A DNA stretch of 14,170 nt from a virus (taxonomy: Duplodnaviria; Heunggongvirae; Uroviricota; Caudoviricetes). Where the stretch lies: IMG/VR virus record IMGVR_UViG_2526164691_000021; one strand, written 5' to 3'. Positions 3,689 through 12,369 of the stretch are shown one piece after another; the stretch's first letter is position 1, and each line of letters begins with the position of its first letter. A program made the translations under genes and the position numbers. The notes beneath the pieces are model-generated. The model was not told the DNA's origin. It did no database searches and saw only the letters and a program-made list of their open reading frames with translations.

Positions 3689-3983
3689 GGTTAACCTCCT
3701 GCGGAGTAGCCTTTACAAGCACTGGTGCAAATCCATCTTCATTAAGGTTATGAATATAGACTTCTGTTCTCCTGCGCTCTTCAACGTTTAATATTGTTTC
3801 TGGATCATAAACCCATACTTTCATTCGACTATTCCATGAAGAAATCGCTTCAGATCTAGTTCGTTTTTCTGGTCCTTGGGCACCACATTTGCATGACACA
3901 TAGCGCATTTTCCCTCTGATACTGAATGAGTATCCGATGTTAAGCACAGTGGAACCACAGAATGGGCAGCGATATAGATTCAT
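3681..3983 (-). CDS. Lar-family restriction-alleviation-like protein, 100 aa, with C-terminal extension
   Basis: N-terminal CPFCG…CxC…EAISSWNSR motif typical of the Lar family (Rac prophage Lar type); ATGA stop/start overlap with the upstream gene; SD AGGTGG. Confidence 0.55.
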   Translation of the reverse strand: MNLYRCPFCGSTVLNIGYSFSIRGKMRYVSCKCGAQGPEKRTRSEAISSWNSRMKVWVYDPETILNVEERRRTEVYIHNLNEDGFAPVLVKATPQEVNRG

Positions 3984-4597
3984 AAATCATCCACCTTAGG
4001 CGCAGCTGAGACAGCAACATTCCAGAACTCAGAAAACATATTGTATGCACCAGATAGATTGGAAGTAGCATACCCTCCAAGCTCACTTCTAATCTGAACG
4101 GCTCTCATCATTTCCGGGGTTAACTCCTTCGGCACCATAACCCAACCATCCGGAGTTACCGGAGAGTTGCCACCGGGAATATTTTCCGGAATATTTTGTT
4201 GTGCGTTTTGTGGTTGTTCTGATTTACCCTGAAGCATGGCGGCGCGGCAGGCGTTCCAGCCAGCTGTTCGCCCAAGCGCGTAAACTTCAGATGGATCAAG
4301 ATAATCAATGTCATGCCCGTCCTCATCGTCGTTCTCAGGTAATGCAGCAGGTACTACCGGTACTGGCGGAGCGGCGTAGACCTCAATAATTCCATTATCA
4401 ATAGGCCATTCTCCATCCTTGAGGTAGTCACTTGTGCCGTCAACTTGCTGTTCTGCAATGTGGAATGCACCTATTGGTTTTGCTTCCAGCGATGCCAGAG
4501 CAATCCGTGCCAGTTCCATTTGTTCGCCACTAGTAAGTCCGTTATCAAGCGGGGATTTAATGAACAATTCGATACGTTCTTTAGTGATAGTGCTCAT
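3980..4597 (-). CDS. Hypothetical protein, 205 aa
   Basis: ORF track gives 238 aa from an upstream ATG, but the ATG at 4597 (MSTITKERIELF…) has a strong SD (AAGGAGAG) and lies 1 nt after the stop of the upstream gene, so I call this start; acidic, no family recognised. Confidence 0.55.
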   Translation of the reverse strand: MSTITKERIELFIKSPLDNGLTSGEQMELARIALASLEAKPIGAFHIAEQQVDGTSDYLKDGEWPIDNGIIEVYAAPPVPVVPAALPENDDEDGHDIDYLDPSEVYALGRTAGWNACRAAMLQGKSEQPQNAQQNIPENIPGGNSPVTPDGWVMVPKELTPEMMRAVQIRSELGGYATSNLSGAYNMFSEFWNVAVSAAPKVDDL

Positions 4598-4598
4598 A

Positions 4599-5156
4599 TC
4601 ACTCTCCTTTGATGCGAATGCCAGCTGCGCTTGCTGATTCTTCATATGCGCGTTTAGCAGCGTTAAGGATTGCTGCCAGTGGCGTATAGCCGCCATCCAT
4701 TCGGATTGTGTTGTGGATGCCAGCCATTGTGTCGCGCAATTTGCTGTGGCTAGCAGACAGTTCTGCTATGCACTTCTCTGCGGCATCGGCTCGATCTTTT
4801 TCACGCTGGAACATTTTGTGAGTGCGGTCTATAGCTTCGATTCGTGCCGCTGATGTCTTCTGCACGGCTTCAAGCTCAACACGCAGCTTCCCAACCGTAA
4901 GAGCAATATCCTCGTTCTTCTGGTCGCGGCGTTTGATGTATTGCTGGTTTCTTTCCCGTTCATCCAGTAGTGCCAGCACGGTTTCTGGCCCGGTCAGAAA
5001 TTTGAAGGCGTTGAGCGCATCAATATCCACACCGTAATCCTTAAGTTCCTGTTCAGTTAACAAATCATCATCAACTGGCAACATTAACAGGCGTTCCATT
5101 GCCGGAATTGCACGCTCTGCCGCCTCACGCAGTGCCTGATAGTCAATCTTGCTCAT
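4599..5156 (-). CDS. Ead/Ea22-like coiled-coil protein, 185 aa
   Basis: Central coiled-coil region and C-terminal end (…AAGIRIKGE) resemble lambda Ea22 as I recall it; ATGA overlap with the upstream gene. Confidence 0.55.
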   Translation of the reverse strand: MSKIDYQALREAAERAIPAMERLLMLPVDDDLLTEQELKDYGVDIDALNAFKFLTGPETVLALLDERERNQQYIKRRDQKNEDIALTVGKLRVELEAVQKTSAARIEAIDRTHKMFQREKDRADAAEKCIAELSASHSKLRDTMAGIHNTIRMDGGYTPLAAILNAAKRAYEESASAAGIRIKGE

Positions 5157-5881: not shown

Positions 5882-6175
5882 TCAGTCATTACTGATAGCG
5901 CCATAGCGTGAGCGGTAATTACGCAGGCGCGGGTCAATTTCAGGGAAGTGGGTATATGTGGCTTTGCGGAATGGTCGGATTGATGTCTGGTAAATTCGCT
6001 CGCGTTCTTCTTTCTCTGCAAGCCATATACAATGGCGAAATTCCTTTTCCTCTTTCGTTTCCTGCGGTAGCGACATTATCCGATCGTAGTTTTTTCTGAA
6101 TTTATCCAGCACCTCCGATACGGAATTGCCGGAACAGCGGCGCGCGTCATCCGCACCATACAGAGGCGCTGGCAT
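5882..6175 (-). CDS. Hypothetical protein, 97 aa; position and size are compatible with a P22 Abc2-like anti-RecBCD protein (speculative)
   Basis: ATG at 6175 with AAGGA SD; lies downstream of the Erf/SSB pair; Abc2 assignment rests on size and synteny only. Confidence 0.5.
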
Positions 6176-6198
6176 AATTAAATCCTTATTTTTCTAAA

Positions 6199-6582
6199 TC
6201 AGAATGGGATGGAATCGTCGTATACAGGAGTGTTCTGCTGGTTACTACTTTGCTGCTGCGGGCCATTTCCTGAAGCTGCAAATCCAATCTTTGCATTCAG
6301 TAATTCAAGAGTGATTGATTGACCATTTTGCCCCTGATAAACATCAACCCTGATGTTTTCTCCGGTAATTTCCACAATGCCACCTTCAACAAGAACACTA
6401 CGGTAGTAATCCGCTTGCGCTCCCGGCTTGGCAAATACAACGGCGCTGTAGTTTGTCCATTCTTTCTTTTTTGTCTGGCGATCGTAATACTGAACGCCAG
6501 CACGGATGTTGAATCCGATATTTTCCCCGGTCTGAAACTCTCTTGCGGGCTTGTTTAGTCTTACAGTAATCGAATGTGCCAT
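6199..6582 (-). CDS. SSB-like single-stranded DNA-binding protein, 127 aa
   Basis: C-terminal acidic tail …YDDSIPF resembles the SSB protein-interaction tail DDDIPF; start placed at ATG 6582 (MAHSITV…), overlapping the Erf stop (TAATG), with AAGGAG upstream. Confidence 0.55.
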   Translation of the reverse strand: MAHSITVRLNKPAREFQTGENIGFNIRAGVQYYDRQTKKKEWTNYSAVVFAKPGAQADYYRSVLVEGGIVEITGENIRVDVYQGQNGQSITLELLNAKIGFAASGNGPQQQSSNQQNTPVYDDSIPF

Positions 6583-7187
6583 TAAGCAGCAGCTCCTTCT
6601 AATTCGTCTCGTCTGATGTTGTAAACGTCCTGCGCTTTGTGCTGCTCCGGTGTACCTTCGAGCATCTTCCACGCTTTGGCGAACGCCTGTTTAAGCTCTT
6701 CTACGGTGTTTTTCTGCATTGCTGCGTCAGTGAATGCTTTTAGAACCTGTTCAGGTGTAGGTGATGGTTTTGATTGCTTTGCTGCTGCGTTCTGCTGATG
6801 TTTATGCTCGTCGGTATCTGCATCTTTCGCATCATCAATGCCGAATAAACCATTGAGGCAATACTTGCGTGCATAAGAGCTTGTAGCTCCCGTAACTTGT
6901 GCAGAATCCATTCCTTTCTTGCTTTCTTCCTCTCGTGCAAGAGCGGTTGCCGTATGACTGTTTTCGCCATCGGTAATAGTTGCCGTGGCTTTCACATAAT
7001 ACCGATCACCAATCAACACAACTTCATCGCTGATTGATAAAAACAGGCCATTCAGTAACGGCTTAACGCCTTCAAGAATATCTTCGCAGCTTCTGTATTT
7101 ATATTTGCCGAATGAGTTGTACTGATTCTTTGGCGCGTTCAGATTCTCCTGAATAGCTGCCAGTCTTGCGTAAAATTCTTTGCTCAT
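6582..7187 (-). CDS. erf: Erf-family single-strand annealing protein (P22 Erf-like), 201 aa
   Basis: MSKEFYARLAAIQENLNAPKNQYNSFGKYKYRSCEDILEGVKPL… and the SSYARKYCLNGLFGIDD motif match the ERF family / P22 Erf as I recall it; ATG at 7187 chosen over the TTG at 7217. Confidence 0.65.
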   Translation of the reverse strand: MSKEFYARLAAIQENLNAPKNQYNSFGKYKYRSCEDILEGVKPLLNGLFLSISDEVVLIGDRYYVKATATITDGENSHTATALAREEESKKGMDSAQVTGATSSYARKYCLNGLFGIDDAKDADTDEHKHQQNAAAKQSKPSPTPEQVLKAFTDAAMQKNTVEELKQAFAKAWKMLEGTPEQHKAQDVYNIRRDELEGAAA

Positions 7188-7197
7188 ATGATTGTTC

Positions 7198-7368
7198 TCA
7201 GAATGGACACGGCCCAAGGAAATAACGCTGATTTAATACTTCGACTCGGGACAAATTAAGGCATACCCGCATTCCTTCGCGGTCACCATTATGGCGATAC
7301 CAGAGAGCTTTCTGCGTGTACATGCGCCTCTGTAACTTGCTCTCCTTCACTGTGGTTGCAAGTGACAT
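7198..7368 (-). CDS. Small hypothetical protein, 56 aa (MSLATTVKESKLQRRMYTQKALWYRHNGDREGMRVCLNLSEVEVLNQRYFLGPCPF); position corresponds to P22 arf
   Basis: Hand-translated; near-perfect SD (GAAGGAGATATTC) before ATG 7368; directly upstream of erf; not in the ORF track. Confidence 0.4.
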   Translation of the reverse strand: MSLATTVKESKLQRRMYTQKALWYRHNGDREGMRVCLNLSRVEVLNQRYFLGPCPF

Positions 7369-7443
7369 GAATATCTCCTTCGTTACCGATTAATTCTTTC
7401 ATCTGACGAATGAATTCTTCGTCTGACCAGTTATCTGTAAAAC

Positions 7444-7596
7444 TCATTTCCTGCGATAACACGGAAGGTTGATAGCTGATTTCATCGCTTTATTTGCTTC
7501 AAGCCACATTTTTGAATCACCAATAAATCGGGCTATTACTGCCTTGTTCTGTGCAGCACGAAGCATCTGGTGATTGATGGCTATTTCATTGCGCAT
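7444..7596 (-). CDS. kil: Kil-like small protein, 50 aa (MRNEIAINHQMLRAAQNKAVIARFIGDSKMWLEANKAMKSAINLPCYRRK)
   Basis: Hand-translated; …IARFIGDSKMW… resembles the lambda Kil core (…IATFIGDEKMF…) from memory; position between the CIII-like ORF and the recombination genes matches lambda synteny; SD GAGG. Confidence 0.4.
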   Translation of the reverse strand: MRNEIAINHQMLRAAQNKAVIARFIGDSKMWLEANKAMKSAINLPCYRRK

Positions 7597-7712
7597 AATA
7601 AGACCTCAACTCTTTTCCATCCGTCACGTAATTTACGGGTGATTCGTTCAAGTAAAGATTCATTTAATTGGAAGGCACCCATGCGAGCGCCTCCCGCGAT
7701 TGCGTAAATCAT
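7581..7712 (-). CDS. cIII: CIII-like protein, 43 aa (MIYAIAGGARMGAFQLNESLLERITRKLRDGWKRVEVLYCAMK)
   Basis: Hand-translated; contains the ESLLERITRKLRDGWKR helix that I recall as the conserved core of lambda/HK022 CIII; AAGGA SD before ATG 7712; the C-terminus differs from lambda CIII and is shorter. Confidence 0.5.
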   Translation of the reverse strand: MIYAIAGGARMGAFQLNESLLERITRKLRDGWKRVEVLLCAMK

Positions 7713-7736: not shown

Positions 7737-8597
7737 TTAGTAGGTTATTTTTGTTGCGAATAATTCGCCTTTTACGATGGCTGTTATGATATTTTTAGCA
7801 ACATCTTCTGATGCGCCAACCTTGATAAGGTCAGCAAGTATTTTGTTATTTACTTCTTTCCGGTGAGCTTTATCCTTTGCTCTACGCTCTTCTTCGTCCT
7901 TGATTCTTTTTTCTTCTGCTATTCTGGCTTGCTCTTTTGCTTCAGCCTCGCGCAGGATTCGTTCTGCCTCCTCCTGTGCTTTACGGCGTTCTGCTTCAAT
8001 TGCCGCATGCTTTTCTCTTTCAGCTCGTTCTGCTGCCTCTTTTGCTTCGCGCTGTGCTCGTTGCTCGGCTTCAATGCGTTCACGCTCTGCACGTTCCTCT
8101 GCGGCCTTAGCTTCTGCTTCTCGCCTTGCTGCTGCTTCAATTTCGGCTTTTGCCTTTGCTTCGGCTTCAGCTCTGGCTTTCTCTTCAGCTTCTCTTTTTA
8201 AGCGTTCTTCATGCTCTCGCTTTTCCTGCTCCGCTTTGAGTCTTGCCTCTTCTCTTTGGCGGTCAAATTCGCGATCCATCAAAATCGCTATTTCATGGTC
8301 AGACTCAATTTGCTTTGCGAGAGCTTCAGCTGCTGCCTTAGCTTCTTCTTCGGCTTTAATCCGCGCCTGTTCTTCCTCATAATCAGTAAGAGGCTGGCGC
8401 GCCTTGGCTTTCAGTTCATCAAGGCGATCGCGCACTGTCTTGCGGTTAGCATCAATTAGCTTTGGAATTTCCTTCAGTTCAGCAACAAGGTCTTTGCCAA
8501 GACCATCGAGATATGTTTTCGTCTGCGCAACTTTATACGCCAGATAAGCGATCTCCTTTCTGCCCTTTGCCGTTGTGATATCAGGCACAAAGGACAT
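7737..8597 (-). CDS. Hypothetical protein, 286 aa, with a long E/A/K/R-rich charged repeat region
   Basis: Long ORF; the central ~170 aa are EAEAKAKAE / ERAEREK-type low-complexity repeats, seen at DNA level as reiterated gcttc/gctgc units; no family recognised; weak SD at the called start. Confidence 0.55.
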   Translation of the reverse strand: MSFVPDITTAKGRKEIAYLAYKVAQTKTYLDGLGKDLVAELKEIPKLIDANRKTVRDRLDELKAKARQPLTDYEEEQARIKAEEEAKAAAEALAKQIESDHEIAILMDREFDRQREEARLKAEQEKREHEERLKREAEEKARAEAEAKAKAEIEAAARREAEAKAAEERAERERIEAEQRAQREAKEAAERAEREKHAAIEAERRKAQEEAERILREAEAKEQARIAEEKRIKDEEERRAKDKAHRKEVNNKILADLIKVGASEDVAKNIITAIVKGELFATKITY

Positions 8598-8715
8598 AAC
8601 TTCACGTTCAACCTTTTGAAGAATTTCTTCAATCTGGTCGGCAGACTAAATTACAGTCATTGCATTTGCTTTTTCAATAACAACTAAATCTGTTACTTCA
8701 CTCATATATCCTCCG

Positions 8716-8746
8716 TCAAAAAAATTGCCCTCACACTGGAGGGCAA
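8716..8746 (-). terminator. Intrinsic terminator-like hairpin on the leftward transcript (tL1-like position)
   Basis: 8-bp stem TTGCCCTC / GAGGGCAA (8725-8732 / 8739-8746) with 6-nt loop, followed on the - strand by a U7 tract (complement of 8716-8724). Confidence 0.45.
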
Positions 8747-8967
8747 AGAAGATTTCCAATAATCAGAACAAGTCGGCTCCTGTTTAGTTACGAGCGACAT
8801 TGCTCCGTGTATTCACTCGTTGGAATGAATACACAGTGCAGTGTTTATTCGTATGCCTGTCTTTTAACCACATCAGGCTCGGTGGTTCTCGTGTACCCCT
8901 ACAGCGAGAAATCGGATAAACTCTATTCACCCCTACAGAGAGAATGATGGAGATTCTGGATTTGCCC

Positions 8968-9873
8968 CTATATTTCCAGACACCTGTTATCACTTAACCC
9001 ATTACTGGCTTGCTGCCGTAGATATTCCCGTGGCGAGCGATAACCCAGTGCACTATGCGGATGCCATTCGTTATAATGCTCGAACGCCTCTGCAAGGTTC
9101 TTTGCTGCCGTTAACCCGTCTGGTTTGGGCATGACACTGATGTAGTCACGCTTTATCGTTTTCACGAAGCTCTCTGCTATGCCGTTACTCTCCGGACTCC
9201 GCACCGCCGTGCTCTTCGGTTCAAGCCCCAACATCCGGGCAAACTGCCGTGTTTCATTAGCCCGGTAGCATGAACCATTATCCGTCAGCCACTCTACTGG
9301 AGACGCCGGAAGCTCGTTGCCGAAGCGGCGTTCCACCGCTCCCAGCATGACGTCCTGTACTGTTTCACTGTTGAAGCCGCCCGTAGTGACCGCCCAGTGC
9401 AGTGCCTCACGGTCACAGCAGTCCAGCGCGAACGTGACTCGCAGTTTTTCTCCGTTATCACAGCGGAACTCGAACCCGTCAGAGCACCATCGCTGATTAC
9501 TTTCTTTCACAGCCACTCTGCCTGTATGTGCCCGTTTCGATGGCGGTACAGCAGGTTTTCGCTCAAGCAACAGCGCATTCTGGCGCATGATCCGGTAAAC
9601 ACGTTTGGCATTGATCGCAGGCATACCATCAAGTTCTGCCTGTCTGCGAAGCAGCGCCCATACCCGACGATAACCATACGTGGGCAGCTCTCCGATAACA
9701 TGGTGTATACGGAGAAGCACATCCGTATCATCAGTGTGACGACTGCGGCGGCCATCCATCCAGTCATCGGTTCGTCTGAGAATGACGTGCAACTGCGCAC
9801 GCGACACCCGGAGACAACGGCTGACTAAGCTTACTCCCCATCCCCGGGCAATAAGGGCGCGTGCGCTATCCAC
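8968..9873 (-). CDS. insD: IS2 transposase OrfB (InsD), normally made as an InsCD fusion by -1 frameshift
   Basis: 301-aa ORF with IS3-family DDE transposase sequence matching IS2 InsD; overlaps the insC 3' end in the -1 frame. Confidence 0.9.
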
Positions 9874-10196
9874 TTTTTTGCCCGTCCATATTCAACGGCT
9901 TCTTTGAGGAGTTCATTTTCCATCGTTTTCTTGCCGAGCAGGCGCTGGAGTTCTTTAATCTGCTTCATGGCGGCAGCAAGTTCAGAGGCAGGAACAACCT
10001 GTTCTCCGGCGGCGACAGCAGTAAGACTTCCTTCCTGGTATTGCTTACGCCAGAGAAATAACTGGCTGGCTGCTACACCATGTTGCCGGGCAACGAGGGA
10101 GACCGTCATCCCTGGTTCAAAGCTCTGCTGAACAATTGCGATCTTTTCCTGTGTGGTACGCCGTCTGCGTTTCTCCGGTCCTAAGACATCAATCAT
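9831..10196 (-). CDS. insC: IS2 OrfA (InsC), HTH regulatory / transposase N-terminal protein
   Basis: 121 aa starting [41 protein letters not shown]…; the track ORF extends 15 codons upstream, but the IS2 protein starts at the ATG at 10196. Confidence 0.9.
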
Positions 10197-10296
10197 CTGC
10201 TCTCCAATGACTAGTCTAAAAACTAGTATTAAGACTATCACTTAAATAAGTGATACTGGTTGTCTGGAGATTCAGGGGGCCAGTCTAGATTCACCG

Positions 10297-10836
10297 ATGA
10301 GTAACTGGTGGCAGGAACTATTACGTTTCTTCCTGCGTGGTCTTACGCTACAACAGTTAATTCATATGCTTATTATTTTAATTGCCTTGATAATAATCAC
10401 CCCAGCATCAATTAAAGAGTGGGTAGATATAAGGAACCCCGAAATACTTCCAGATCACTGGATGTATTACGCAATGCTTTTGTGTATCAGTTATGTTCTG
10501 AACAGGGGGATGGAGTTTATATTTCTGGCATCTTCAGACAGATATAAAAAATATCTCAGTAAGAGAGATGAGGCTAAAGTAATTGTGGAGACTGAGCGCC
10601 TATTCAATTCTCTGAGTATTCAGGAAAAAGAGGTTTTAGCATTTGCTGTTATGGCAAATAACAAAATCGTACTTAAGCACGGCGATCCGGTCGCTTTATC
10701 TCTTATGAGAAAAGGCCTTCTCCATCGCTCAGGTGTGACTTACAGCGCGTCAGGTAAAGAGAAATTTGTTATACCTGACGTCTGGTTCCATGAGTGTTAT
10801 ATGCGCTTTGCTGGTAAAGCTGATGAGCTAATTTAG
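10297..10836 (+). CDS. sieB: SieB-like superinfection-exclusion membrane protein (putative), 179 aa
   Basis: Two N-terminal hydrophobic helices (LIHMLIILIALIIITPA, WMYYAMLLCISYVL); size and position next to N, on the strand opposite the pL operon, match sieB of lambdoid/Rac prophages; family call from memory, unverified. Confidence 0.45.
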   Translation: MSNWWQELLRFFLRGLTLQQLIHMLIILIALIIITPASIKEWVDIRNPEILPDHWMYYAMLLCISYVLNRGMEFIFLASSDRYKKYLSKRDEAKVIVETERLFNSLSIQEKEVLAFAVMANNKIVLKHGDPVALSLMRKGLLHRSGVTYSASGKEKFVIPDVWFHECYMRFAGKADELI

Positions 10837-10859
10837 TTCCTCTACGGCGGGGGGGATCG

Positions 10860-11132
10860 TCACCTCGCTGTCAGTTGTTTTGATTTCCGGTAGCCTGCCG
10901 CGTAAATGGCTACGTTTGGAAGACAAGTTGAACCTTCATATTTTCTGGTCAACGTTGTCAGAGTTATAACTTCTGCTCTCATTGCTGGTTTGCGCTTGCA
11001 TTGCAAGACCACTCGTGAAGGGGTTGGCCTGTGTAGCTTGTCGGAGCTAATCGCCTCCTGACTTTGCAGGTTTGCGCGACGAGCTCTACGGCGAGAAGCT
11101 GCGGTGCCTTTAAATTCTGTTTTTCTGGACAT
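10860..11132 (-). CDS. N: N-like transcription antiterminator, 90 aa
   Basis: N-terminal arginine-rich motif (KGTAASRRRARRANLQSQ); C-terminus …IYAAGYRKSKQLTAR resembles P22 gp24 / phage 21 N from memory; ATG at 11132 with GGGAGGAA SD (the track ORF starts further upstream); lies downstream of nut-like boxA/boxB. Confidence 0.65.
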   Translation of the reverse strand: MSRKTEFKGTAASRRRARRANLQSQEAISSDKLHRPTPSRVVLQCKRKPAMRAEVITLTTLTRKYEGSTCLPNVAIYAAGYRKSKQLTAR

Positions 11133-11230
11133 AGATTCCTCCCGAATAAACTTTGGCGATGCAATCTCGAAGCTCCTCCTGAGACGGTTACTTCGGCATT
11201 GCATCCCACAGCTTATGTGGTTGGGTGATC

Positions 11231-11277
11231 TGGCTTTTCAGCCACGTAGTCGAGTGTTCGACGTTGTTTAAAGAGCC
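11231..11277 (-). promoter_or_regulatory. nutL: nutL candidate: boxA-like GGCTCTTTA and boxB-like hairpin UGGCU-GAAA-AGCCA
   Basis: On the - strand, boxA-like sequence (complement of 11268-11277) followed by the hairpin at 11231-11244 with a GAAA loop; located in the leader between the putative pL and N. Confidence 0.4.
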
Positions 11278-11322
11278 TGCCAGTCTGCTCCGTTTGGCTT
11301 ACAGCGTCCTGCTGATGAGTTG

Positions 11323-11372
11323 ACTTTATCGAAATGATAAACTGATGGCAATAGCAAAATGATAAATTGTTT
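11323..11372 (-). promoter_or_regulatory. oL/pL candidate: promoter TTGCCA-N17-TAAAGT overlapped by the dyad operator TTTATCGAAATGATAAA
   Basis: Perfect 17-bp dyad TTTATC-N5-GATAAA at 11325-11341; related AAAATGATAAATTG at 11358-11371; -35/-10-like hexamers on the - strand at 11351..11346 and 11328..11323. Confidence 0.4.
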
Positions 11373-11540
11373 GGGTTTTCAAATATCCTGTTGATTATTA
11401 TGGTTTTTTATTTGATTGCGGGAATTTATCAGAAGGAATGAAGAGACTTGAGGGGGATCAGAATTTCGTGGTTTAGAAAGTTGTATCTATCAATTTTTCA
11501 ATAAATACAATTGGTTAAGGTGTTATTAGGTGTGGGGATC

Positions 11541-11575
11541 GTGAGGCAAAGAAAACCCGGCGCTGAGGCCGGGTT
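11541..11575 (-). terminator. Intrinsic terminator at the end of the cI operon (tIMM-like)
   Basis: 8-bp GC-rich stem AACCCGGC / GCCGGGTT (11554-11561 / 11568-11575) with 6-nt loop, followed on the - strand by UUCUUUG. Confidence 0.5.
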
Positions 11576-11582
11576 CTGTCAT

Positions 11583-11723
11583 CTAACTTAAGTATCAAGC
11601 CGCTTTTTGTGAATGATTGATGTGAGCTTCAAAGTCGCGGCGTAGATTTTGAACGCGCTCTACACATCCGCGCATTTCAGCCAAAAGCTTACTAACGGCA
11701 GTATAGTCAAACGCTTTAGTCAT
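11583..11723 (-). CDS. Small hypothetical protein, 46 aa (MTKAFDYTAVSKLLAEMRGCVERVQNLRRDFEAHINHSQKAADYLS)
   Basis: Hand-translated; ATG at 11723 preceded by GAGGGG SD, 15 nt after the stop of the 120-aa gene; followed by the terminator above; not in the ORF track. Confidence 0.4.
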
Positions 11724-11738
11724 TTTTTTTCCCCTCGT

Positions 11739-12101
11739 TTAAATGTAAGGCTCAACATCAAGGGCTGCTATTGCTGCGCACAATGCGTCAGGATCGTCAG
11801 CATCGATGGCTTGAGCCAGGTCATTAGCCAGTATAAGTAACTTATCGATGACAGCGATTTCGCTGGTCTTATCTACACGAAAGTATGGGAGCAGAGCATT
11901 ACATACGTCTCTGAATGTCCGTAATTCTGCGACAACGTTCGAAAAGGTAGGATCTTTCTTACGAAGATCCACCAATGGCGCTACTTTAGCTGTTTTCAGC
12001 ATTGCACTAATCTCGCCAATCATTGTTCCATGCAGACGATTAAATTCATCAACAGCTCGGTCATGCAAGCTCTTGTTGATTGGCAATACGTTTTGGGTCA
12101 C
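11739..12101 (-). CDS. Hypothetical protein, 120 aa, in the cI-linked immunity-region cargo position (where lambda has rexAB)
   Basis: GTG start at 12101 with AAGGAG SD 8 nt upstream; predicted helical, acidic; no family recognised. Confidence 0.55.
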   Translation of the reverse strand: MTQNVLPINKSLHDRAVDEFNRLHGTMIGEISAMLKTAKVAPLVDLRKKDPTFSNVVAELRTFRDVCNALLPYFRVDKTSEIAVIDKLLILANDLAQAIDADDPDALCAAIAALDVEPYI

Positions 12102-12369
12102 TAACTATACTCCTTATATAGGTGTTCGCCAACAGATTTTCAATATGACTTGGGCGATTTCTGAACAATAAGCACGATTTAGCAATGATTAATTGATGTT
12201 AAGCACAAATATCTCTACATCGTGCATTTTTAACTATTTATACACATAAAATCTAATAAATGGATATAAACCTTATGATGATTTTTCTCAATCGAATTGA
12301 ATAATGATCTCTATCACATCACCCAAACGTCTCTTCAGGCCACTGGTTACCAGCTATGTGACGATGAAG

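Follow-up and report, generated by a model that had tools for sequence, protein, structure and literature searches.

The locus considered here raises two questions: whether an open reading frame dominated by a tract of glutamate, alanine, lysine and arginine is a complete phage gene, and what a protein built in this way would do. The frame lies in a stretch of 14,170 nucleotides (hereafter the window) from the Caudoviricetes record IMGVR_UViG_2526164691_000021, and the original prediction, made from the sequence alone, had described it as a gene for a 286-residue protein at positions 7737-8597. The gene in the window is a nonsense-inactivated copy of an early-left-operon gene of a lambdoid prophage. 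Its intact relatives form a large family of phage proteins, and the family gene lies, in most clusters examined, close to genes for recombinases. The best joint explanation is that the window copy is dead and that the intact, rod-like protein is an accessory component of a phage recombination or recombination-dependent replication module; the chances of this explanation being correct are judged to be about even. The features concerned, together with the evidence for each, are the following (AF2, AlphaFold2; PGAP, Prokaryotic Genome Annotation Pipeline).

7737-8705, minus strand: ancestral gene of the PHROG 1376 family, 322 codons plus stop, a pseudogene here (alignment, PGAP, PHROG match)
7737-8597, minus strand: 286-residue open reading frame starting at internal Met37 (list of open reading frames, alignment)
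8703-8714, minus strand: start codon (8705-8703) and GGAGG ribosome-binding site (8714-8710) (reading of the sequence; coding-sequence starts agree in mEp234, Sf101 and RefSeq)
8716-8746, minus strand: intrinsic-terminator-like hairpin (TTGCCCTCCAGTGTGAGGGCAA) and T-run, tL1-like, directly upstream of the gene (kept in mEp234 and Sf101)
8646-8648, minus strand: premature amber codon TAG at codon 20 (CAG in 46 of 46 intact alleles examined)
8346-8705, minus strand: N-terminal domain, residues 1 to about 120 (phmmer, conservation, heptad signal, AF2)
7860-8384, minus strand: E/A/R/K-rich helical tract, residues 108-282, single-alpha-helix-like, a variable-length spacer (composition, salt-bridge density, heptad analysis, AF2)
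8262-8315, minus strand: conserved non-repetitive island in the tract (QIESDHEIAILMDREFDR) (kept in divergent relatives)
7740-7865, minus strand: C-terminal domain, residues 281-322, HRKEVNN...G.S.E.AK..I.AI.KG.....I.Y (family-wide conservation)

An ATG-to-stop frame of 286 codons is indeed present at 7737-8597 on the minus strand. It is not a complete gene, as had been proposed, but the tail of a gene of 322 codons that starts at 8705. The homologous coding sequence in mEp234 and Sf101 is 969 nt long (322 aa), with its start 108 nt further upstream, and the equivalent of that start codon in the window is the ATG at 8705-8703, located 5 nt past GGAGG. Alignment of the window with these two intact genes gives a mean column identity of 99% and no indels. 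The shorter frame begins at the internal Met37 of the parent gene, and no obvious Shine-Dalgarno sequence is seen before this ATG on reading the sequence. The terminator that had been placed ahead of the gene is confirmed: a hairpin occupies 8746-8725 (minus strand), and a T-run comes after it. The longer frame is interrupted at codon 20, which is TAG in the window (8648-8646) and CAG in mEp234 and Sf101. RefSeq/PGAP calls the identical sequence of DEC9B and E2865 a pseudogene with an "internal stop", and the counterpart of 7737-8705 in DEC9B carries the name "cell envelope biogenesis protein TolA; internal stop". The region had thus been miscalled in part, as a 286-aa gene where there is a 322-codon pseudogene with a premature amber codon, whereas the charged tract itself is real. 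The gene annotation is corrected accordingly.

The window allele was compared with 46 intact alleles of 969 nt. Five changes are private to it (F19I, Q20*, S54Y, A203E and V315L), and none of the five is synonymous, all being missense or nonsense. The serine at position 54 is conserved in at least 90% of the PHROG 1376 family. Five protein-altering changes with no silent one among them fit decay after inactivation. The uninterrupted frame that marks a functional family member is lacking in the window copy, broken by the TAG at codon 20. The allele is not confined to the window: the 5' end of the gene is found in 503 of 5,426 complete E. coli genomes (about 9%), and of the 510 matching E. coli records, 111 (about a fifth) contain the exact 80-mer with the amber codon. 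The window copy is probably ordinary and dead, a decaying prophage pseudogene. In this prophage the gene would be non-functional, or would give at most a low-level product without its first 36 residues.

The intact protein belongs to a family that is neither small nor new. Residues 1-322 give a full-length match to PHROG 1376 (function unknown) at E=3.5e-110, and separate PHROGs cover the N- and C-halves. A phmmer search with the N-terminal domain alone, against 1.84 billion cluster representatives (clusters at 50% identity), returned 4,984 matches at E<=1e-3 and 3,503 at E<=1e-10. Distant members share the architecture of the window protein: an N-terminal domain with the motifs VPDxSTAKGR, SKTYLDGxGK and RxPLTxWE, a charged middle, and a C-terminal domain ending in HRxxIN...G....AK..V.AI..G.I....I.Y. 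The N-terminal domain is encoded in 157 of 50,697 phage genomes, whose hosts include Pseudomonas (58 phages, among them D3, PAJU2 and JBD44), Escherichia/Enterobacteria/Shigella, Vibrio, Klebsiella, Erwinia, Sinorhizobium and others. A protein of this kind had been thought unusual in a phage early operon; its occurrence in 503 of the 5,426 E. coli genomes, in 157 phage records and in at least 3,503 N-domain clusters refutes that view. The same three-part architecture is found in the Sf6 gene 33 protein, the mEp234 'TolA' and Pseudomonas phage JBD44 gp65 (PHROG 1376). The window N-terminal domain is 98-100% identical to those of the Sf6 and mEp234 proteins; unlike these three members, the window copy has the amber codon 20 and its private changes. 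This is a very large family of Proteobacteria phages, already catalogued as PHROG 1376, and the feature in the window is not itself novel.

Terminal domains without a recognised family had been anticipated, and neither domain has a curated Pfam or NCBIfam match. A Pfam search with 39 diverse members gave nothing meaningful even at E<=10, and no characterised homologue was found in the literature. The window protein is 98-99% identical to E. coli protein clusters named TolA. Other records name members of the family colicin import membrane protein, antitoxin, fibrinogen-binding protein, ribosome recycling factor or coil-containing protein, and these varied names are annotation artefacts of the low-complexity tract. 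The family is among the larger phage protein families that have neither a Pfam model nor a structure, and thousands of genomes systematically carry it under the wrong name TolA.

The N-terminal domain, predicted at about 75 aa, is present but larger, at about 115-120 aa. It consists of two short helices, a loop with the motif VPDxxTAKGR, and the start of a long helix with heptad-spaced hydrophobic residues. The heptad signal (z=3.3-4.1) is limited to residues 55-103 and does not extend into the charged tract. Conserved basic residues of this domain are R49, K63, K71, K78, K82, R88, K89, R92, K99 and R103. The heptad spacing of eight of them (K63, K71, K78, K82, K89, R92, K99 and R103) invites the conjecture that they bind nucleic acid or an acidic partner. 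The C-terminal domain is conserved and, at about 40-45 aa, has the size expected for it; in the AF2 models its predicted local distance difference test (pLDDT) values are 91-98. Both terminal domains are near neutral to slightly basic.

The 322-aa form is modelled by AF2 at a pLDDT of 84, with helices at 46-168 and 176-295 and a low-confidence break between them (167-172). A natural variant of 206 aa, modelled from a 115-sequence alignment, reaches 92.6 and has an uninterrupted helix from 46 to 179. In this model the N-terminal domain (helices 12-20 and 22-37) and the C-terminal domain (helix 184-195 plus tail) lie at opposite ends of the helix, so that the variant is predicted to be shaped like a dumbbell or rod. 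An antiparallel hairpin of the SMC type was considered and dropped, as the 206-aa variant is one straight helix with its domains at opposite ends. No membrane segment or signal sequence is present: the highest Kyte-Doolittle window of 19 residues scores 1.03 and lies at the C-terminus, and the N-terminus is hydrophilic. The intact protein is a soluble, cytoplasmic, rod-like protein. A sequence search of the PDB returned only charged-helix look-alikes (zuotin, cortactin), with no solved structure or known fold matching the protein.

The long charged tract, estimated at about 170 aa in the original prediction, spans 175 aa, residues 108-282 of the full protein. Its composition is 28% E, 25% A, 16% R and 10% K, with E, R and K together at 54%. 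It contains 60 opposite-charge i/i+4 pairs (0.34 per residue), and hydrophobic residues are very scarce past position 148. Heptad periodicity is absent throughout residues 97-285 (power z<2). At the DNA level, the reiterated short units that had been described are only weakly apparent. Direct-repeat families in the tract DNA share 65-88% identity, and Tandem Repeats Finder detects nothing beyond a 6-nt period with 61% matches, which does not amount to a clean array. The overlapping open reading frames previously regarded as spurious do cover the tract (plus strand 7863-8201, 7900-8382, 7937-8110 and 8211-8459; minus strand 7919-8140), and they are best read as compositional by-products. The expected variation in tract length is likewise observed. 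E. coli proteins range from 245 to 333 aa with every indel inside the tract, 322 aa being by far the commonest length among these relatives. Across 115 relatives the middle segment measures 45-257 aa, with mean contents of 22% E, 21% A, 12% R and 9% K and a net charge of about -11.

These properties recall the ER/K single alpha-helix (SAH) spacers, such as those of myosin X/VI and caldesmon. The tract resembles SAH domains in its high E/R/K content, its dense i/i+4 opposite-charge pairs, its variable spacer length, the lack of a hydrophobic heptad core and, as far as the models predict, an uninterrupted helix. It differs from them in being unusually rich in alanine (21-25%) and in being set between two phage-specific domains. 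The predicted long charged helix is thus supported as a spacer between two small conserved domains by the AF2 models, the missing heptads and the variable length. The tract is not wholly repetitive. An island (DHEIAILMDREFDR) within it is conserved in one sub-family, and the motif DH[EC][ILM]A[IL]LM[ND] occurs in 17 of 150 cluster representatives. The form QIESDHEIAILMDREFDR, possibly a binding motif, is kept in a short variant of 215 aa but not in other short ones.

The most informative feature of the family is a conserved linkage to recombinase genes, on which the original prediction was silent. A set of 230 related viral loci was fetched, open reading frames were called, the family gene was located with a hidden Markov model, and the proteins were clustered at 70% identity, giving 31 clusters. 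Neighbours were labelled from seeds checked against Pfam (ERF, RecT, Rad52_Rad22, AAA_24 for Sak4, YqaJ, DUF3799, SSB and exonucleases). A labelled single-strand-annealing recombinase (SSAP) was found within -7 to +8 called frames in 27 of the 31 clusters. Of these 27 clusters, 24 contain an SSAP whose fold is defined in Pfam, and the label in the remaining three is PHROG 11517 alone, an unverified candidate for an SSAP. The SSAP directly adjoins the family gene in nine clusters, and in three more its exonuclease or SSB partner does so. The linked SSAPs span at least four unrelated folds (Erf, RecT, Rad52-like and Sak4).

The family gene usually lies just upstream of the SSAP, and the typical orders are family-RecT-YqaJ, family-ERF-YqaJ-SSB and family-Sak4-SSB-like. 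A metagenomic member shows the order DUF3799 exonuclease-family gene-AAA_24. In JBD44, gp65 is followed by genes for proteins of 250 and 208 aa, sizes that match the RecT and YqaJ genes located after family members in two other loci (L123 and L160). In lambda the corresponding order is gam-bet-exo. The gene orders of the family parallel this arrangement, with the family gene in the position of gam. In Firmicutes phages, the slot upstream of erf-ssb/sak4 holds Mu-Gam homologues, DUF2483, DUF1351 or Sipho_Gp157, and the authors of the 2021 survey concerned wrote that the shared slot "implies their analogous function" (PMC8093625). The charged-rod family shares with these proteins and with lambda gam its position relative to erf, recT or sak4 and to their ssb/exonuclease partners. 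Unlike them, it occurs in Proteobacteria phages, has a long charged spacer and shows no detectable homology to any of them. It therefore appears to be the Proteobacteria-phage counterpart of the Firmicutes slot occupants, an analogy of position.

Homology to DUF1351 (PF07083) was tried and rejected: neither the window protein nor 39 relatives gave a Pfam match at E<=10, while an Enterococcus phage LG62 protein, used as positive control, matched at E=2.2e-18. An hhalign comparison of the family profile with an Enterococcus-phage DUF1351 profile gave a probability of 0.6% and E=0.09, with very remote homology still possible given a shallow DUF1351 profile (at least 49% identity). A look at Staphylococcus phages 80alpha and phi11 for DUF1351 led nowhere. 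A scan of genome contigs with one distant member returned only a spurious match to its charged tract.

In the preferred explanation, the two terminal domains would each bind a different partner (DNA, a host factor, the SSAP, or SSB or exonuclease), and the rigid charged helix between them would set how far apart these partners lie, at roughly 7-38 nm (45-257 residues x 0.15 nm). A more specific proposal is that the protein is a hitherto unrecognised and very widespread accessory subunit of phage SSAP systems in Proteobacteria, a length-tunable ruler or tether whose N- and C-terminal domains would link the machinery of SSAP, SSB and exonuclease either with DNA or with a replication or repair factor of the host. 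Such a subunit would work with Erf, RecT, Rad52-like and Sak4 proteins alike, and its co-expression could improve recombineering; this version is considered less likely than not. The linkage to recombinase genes of four unrelated folds turns these ideas into a concrete, testable hypothesis on a partner of phage recombination. If true, it would bear on the understanding of recombination-dependent phage replication, and it could help SSAP-based genome editing, a technique whose restricted host range is ascribed to the lack of partner proteins.

Several points weigh against a role in recombination. The argument is one of guilt by association, and a DNA- or protein-binding fold is recognised in neither terminal domain. 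Monomer AF2 models cannot separate a single alpha-helix from a homo-oligomeric coiled coil. All genes of a lambdoid pL operon lie near recombination genes, which makes part of the synteny uninformative; the adjacent-gene cases outside the lambdoid layout carry most weight. No SSAP is found nearby in three or four clusters (L010, L143, L144 and, in part, L159). Finally, P22, HK97 and HK022 have closely related Erf proteins, and none of the three is among the 60 listed of the 157 family-positive phage records. The gene consequently seems dispensable for Erf function.

Four other readings compete with all or part of this explanation, and two of them concern the product itself. A shortened but functional protein of 286 aa could be made in this prophage by re-initiation at Met37 or by read-through of the amber codon. 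The 286-codon frame is still open and the amber allele persists in the 111 E. coli records, yet the prophage has spread clonally in Shiga-toxin-producing lineages, which accounts for this persistence. The Met37 ATG has no Shine-Dalgarno sequence, the lost residues 1-36 include the conserved L7 and F19, and every private substitution changes the protein, that at the highly conserved S54 included. A functional protein of this kind is improbable, and a residual 286-aa product in this prophage is unlikely. The other reading takes the database names literally, as those of a genuine TolA-like envelope protein spanning the periplasm. The original comparison with TolA is sound as regards composition: the tract resembles the long helical E/A/K-rich domain II of TolA, a resemblance that is the source of the name used by PGAP and several phage records. 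It does not extend to homology. The rod protein lacks a signal sequence and an N-terminal membrane anchor, its score with the TolA model TIGR02794 is 9.6 bits (E=0.48) where the cut-off stands at 59.45, and there is no Pfam TolA domain. Neither Pfam nor sequence and fold searches of the PDB match TolA C-terminal domain III, and the same family appears elsewhere under unrelated names (antitoxin, fibrinogen-binding protein, ribosome recycling factor). The TolA label thus follows from tract composition, and the envelope reading, which retains hardly any probability, is rejected.

The remaining two readings accept the intact rod protein and differ on its task. A Gam-like protein would protect linear DNA ends or inhibit RecBCD, SbcCD or another host nuclease, and would occupy the gam position for that reason. 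The orders family-RecT-YqaJ and family-ERF-YqaJ mirror that of lambda, Mu-Gam homologues hold the same slot in Firmicutes phages (PMC8093625), and the net charge of the middle segment is about -11. Terminal domains that are near neutral to slightly basic do not, however, suggest a DNA mimic; neither sequence nor fold comparisons reveal a resemblance to lambda Gam or Mu Gam/Ku, and the window prophage and its relatives already encode the anti-RecBCD protein Abc2. This reading is considered distinctly unlikely. Slightly better placed, although still unlikely, is an accessory early gene unrelated to recombination (anti-defence, exclusion or modulation of host physiology), for which proximity to an SSAP would merely reflect the layout of early operons. 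The stretch between tL1 and cIII is variable and accessory in lambdoid phages, with a DUF2528 protein as alternative occupant in E. coli, the gene is readily lost or inactivated, and some clusters have no SSAP nearby. Against it, the adjacency holds outside lambdoid pL operons, across four SSAP folds and often with no intervening gene. Five family members gave no significant match to the PADLOC defence models, a library that does not cover anti-defence proteins; the best hit had E=0.0085 and lay over the charged tract.

Two observations concern the recombinases rather than the rod protein. A C-terminal tail of about 40 aa (..EL..AF..AW..L.......R..EL..AA) is common to ERF, RecT, Rad52-like, Sak4/AAA_24 and PHROG 11517 proteins. 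In the window it lies at 6585-6761 on the minus strand, in the last 59 or so residues of Erf, and it also occurs in neighbours of the family gene in the loci from L013 to L242. A tblastn search finds it in 116 phage records, P22, HK97 and HK022 among them, on proteins annotated as Erf, RecT or RecA-like. A docking site for the rod protein was considered for this tail and is unsupported, as the tail is present in the Erf proteins of P22, HK97 and HK022, phages that are not among the 60 listed of 157. The tail looks like a portable partner-binding module, independent of the charged-rod family. By analogy with the C-terminal domain of Red-beta, it more likely binds SSB or the exonuclease. The second observation is that the PHROG 11517 protein (about 176-194 aa) occupies the position of the SSAP at +4 (L242/L047), -2 (L153) or -1 (L175) relative to the family gene. 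It adjoins DUF3799 or YqaJ exonuclease and SSB genes and has no Pfam match, and at least the L047/L242 copy has the shared tail. PHROG 11517 is a candidate for an unrecognised SSAP family.

According to megablast, the surroundings of the gene in the window are a lambdoid pL operon common to CUS-3, Sf101, Sf6, mEp234, HK544 and Stx1a phages, and positions 8600-12300 are 100% identical to the prophage adjoining ybhC in E. coli DEC9B. The neighbouring features are as follows.

8968-10196, minus strand: IS3-family transposase gene with a programmed frameshift, inserted between sieB and the terminator (RefSeq annotation of DEC9B)
5882-7712, minus strand: downstream pL-operon recombination module (RefSeq annotation of the identical prophage, Pfam, PHROGs), with the six entries below
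7581-7712, minus strand: cIII (RefSeq/PHROGs)
7444-7596, minus strand: kil (RefSeq/PHROGs)
7198-7368 and 7289-7447, minus strand: two small open reading frames matching 'recombinase' PHROGs
6582-7187, minus strand: erf (Pfam ERF, E=2.4e-44)
6199-6582, minus strand: SSB-related open reading frame (PHROG)
5882-6175, minus strand: abc2, anti-RecBCD (Pfam Anti-RecBCD_p2, E=5.6e-63)

The frame at 6199-6582, annotated as hypothetical and located between erf and abc2, matches the SSB profile phrog_44 at E=2.7e-27 over positions 89-228 of 271 only, and it has no Pfam match. The product may be an SSB-related phage protein, either divergent or truncated. The IS3-family transposase gene separates pL and N from the charged-repeat gene, and copies coding for a closely similar transposase interrupt the related prophage of E2865 at other positions. 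RefSeq also lists truncated genes in the same prophage (Lar-family restriction-alleviation, hypothetical and ead/Ea22-like, at about 3834-3983, 4460-4597 and 4737-5156, minus strand). Decay in this prophage extends beyond the amber codon to several other sites. Most E. coli genomes that match only in the flanks carry a DUF2528-family gene between the tL1-like terminator and cIII, and XH992 has both genes, which points to a cassette-like variable position.

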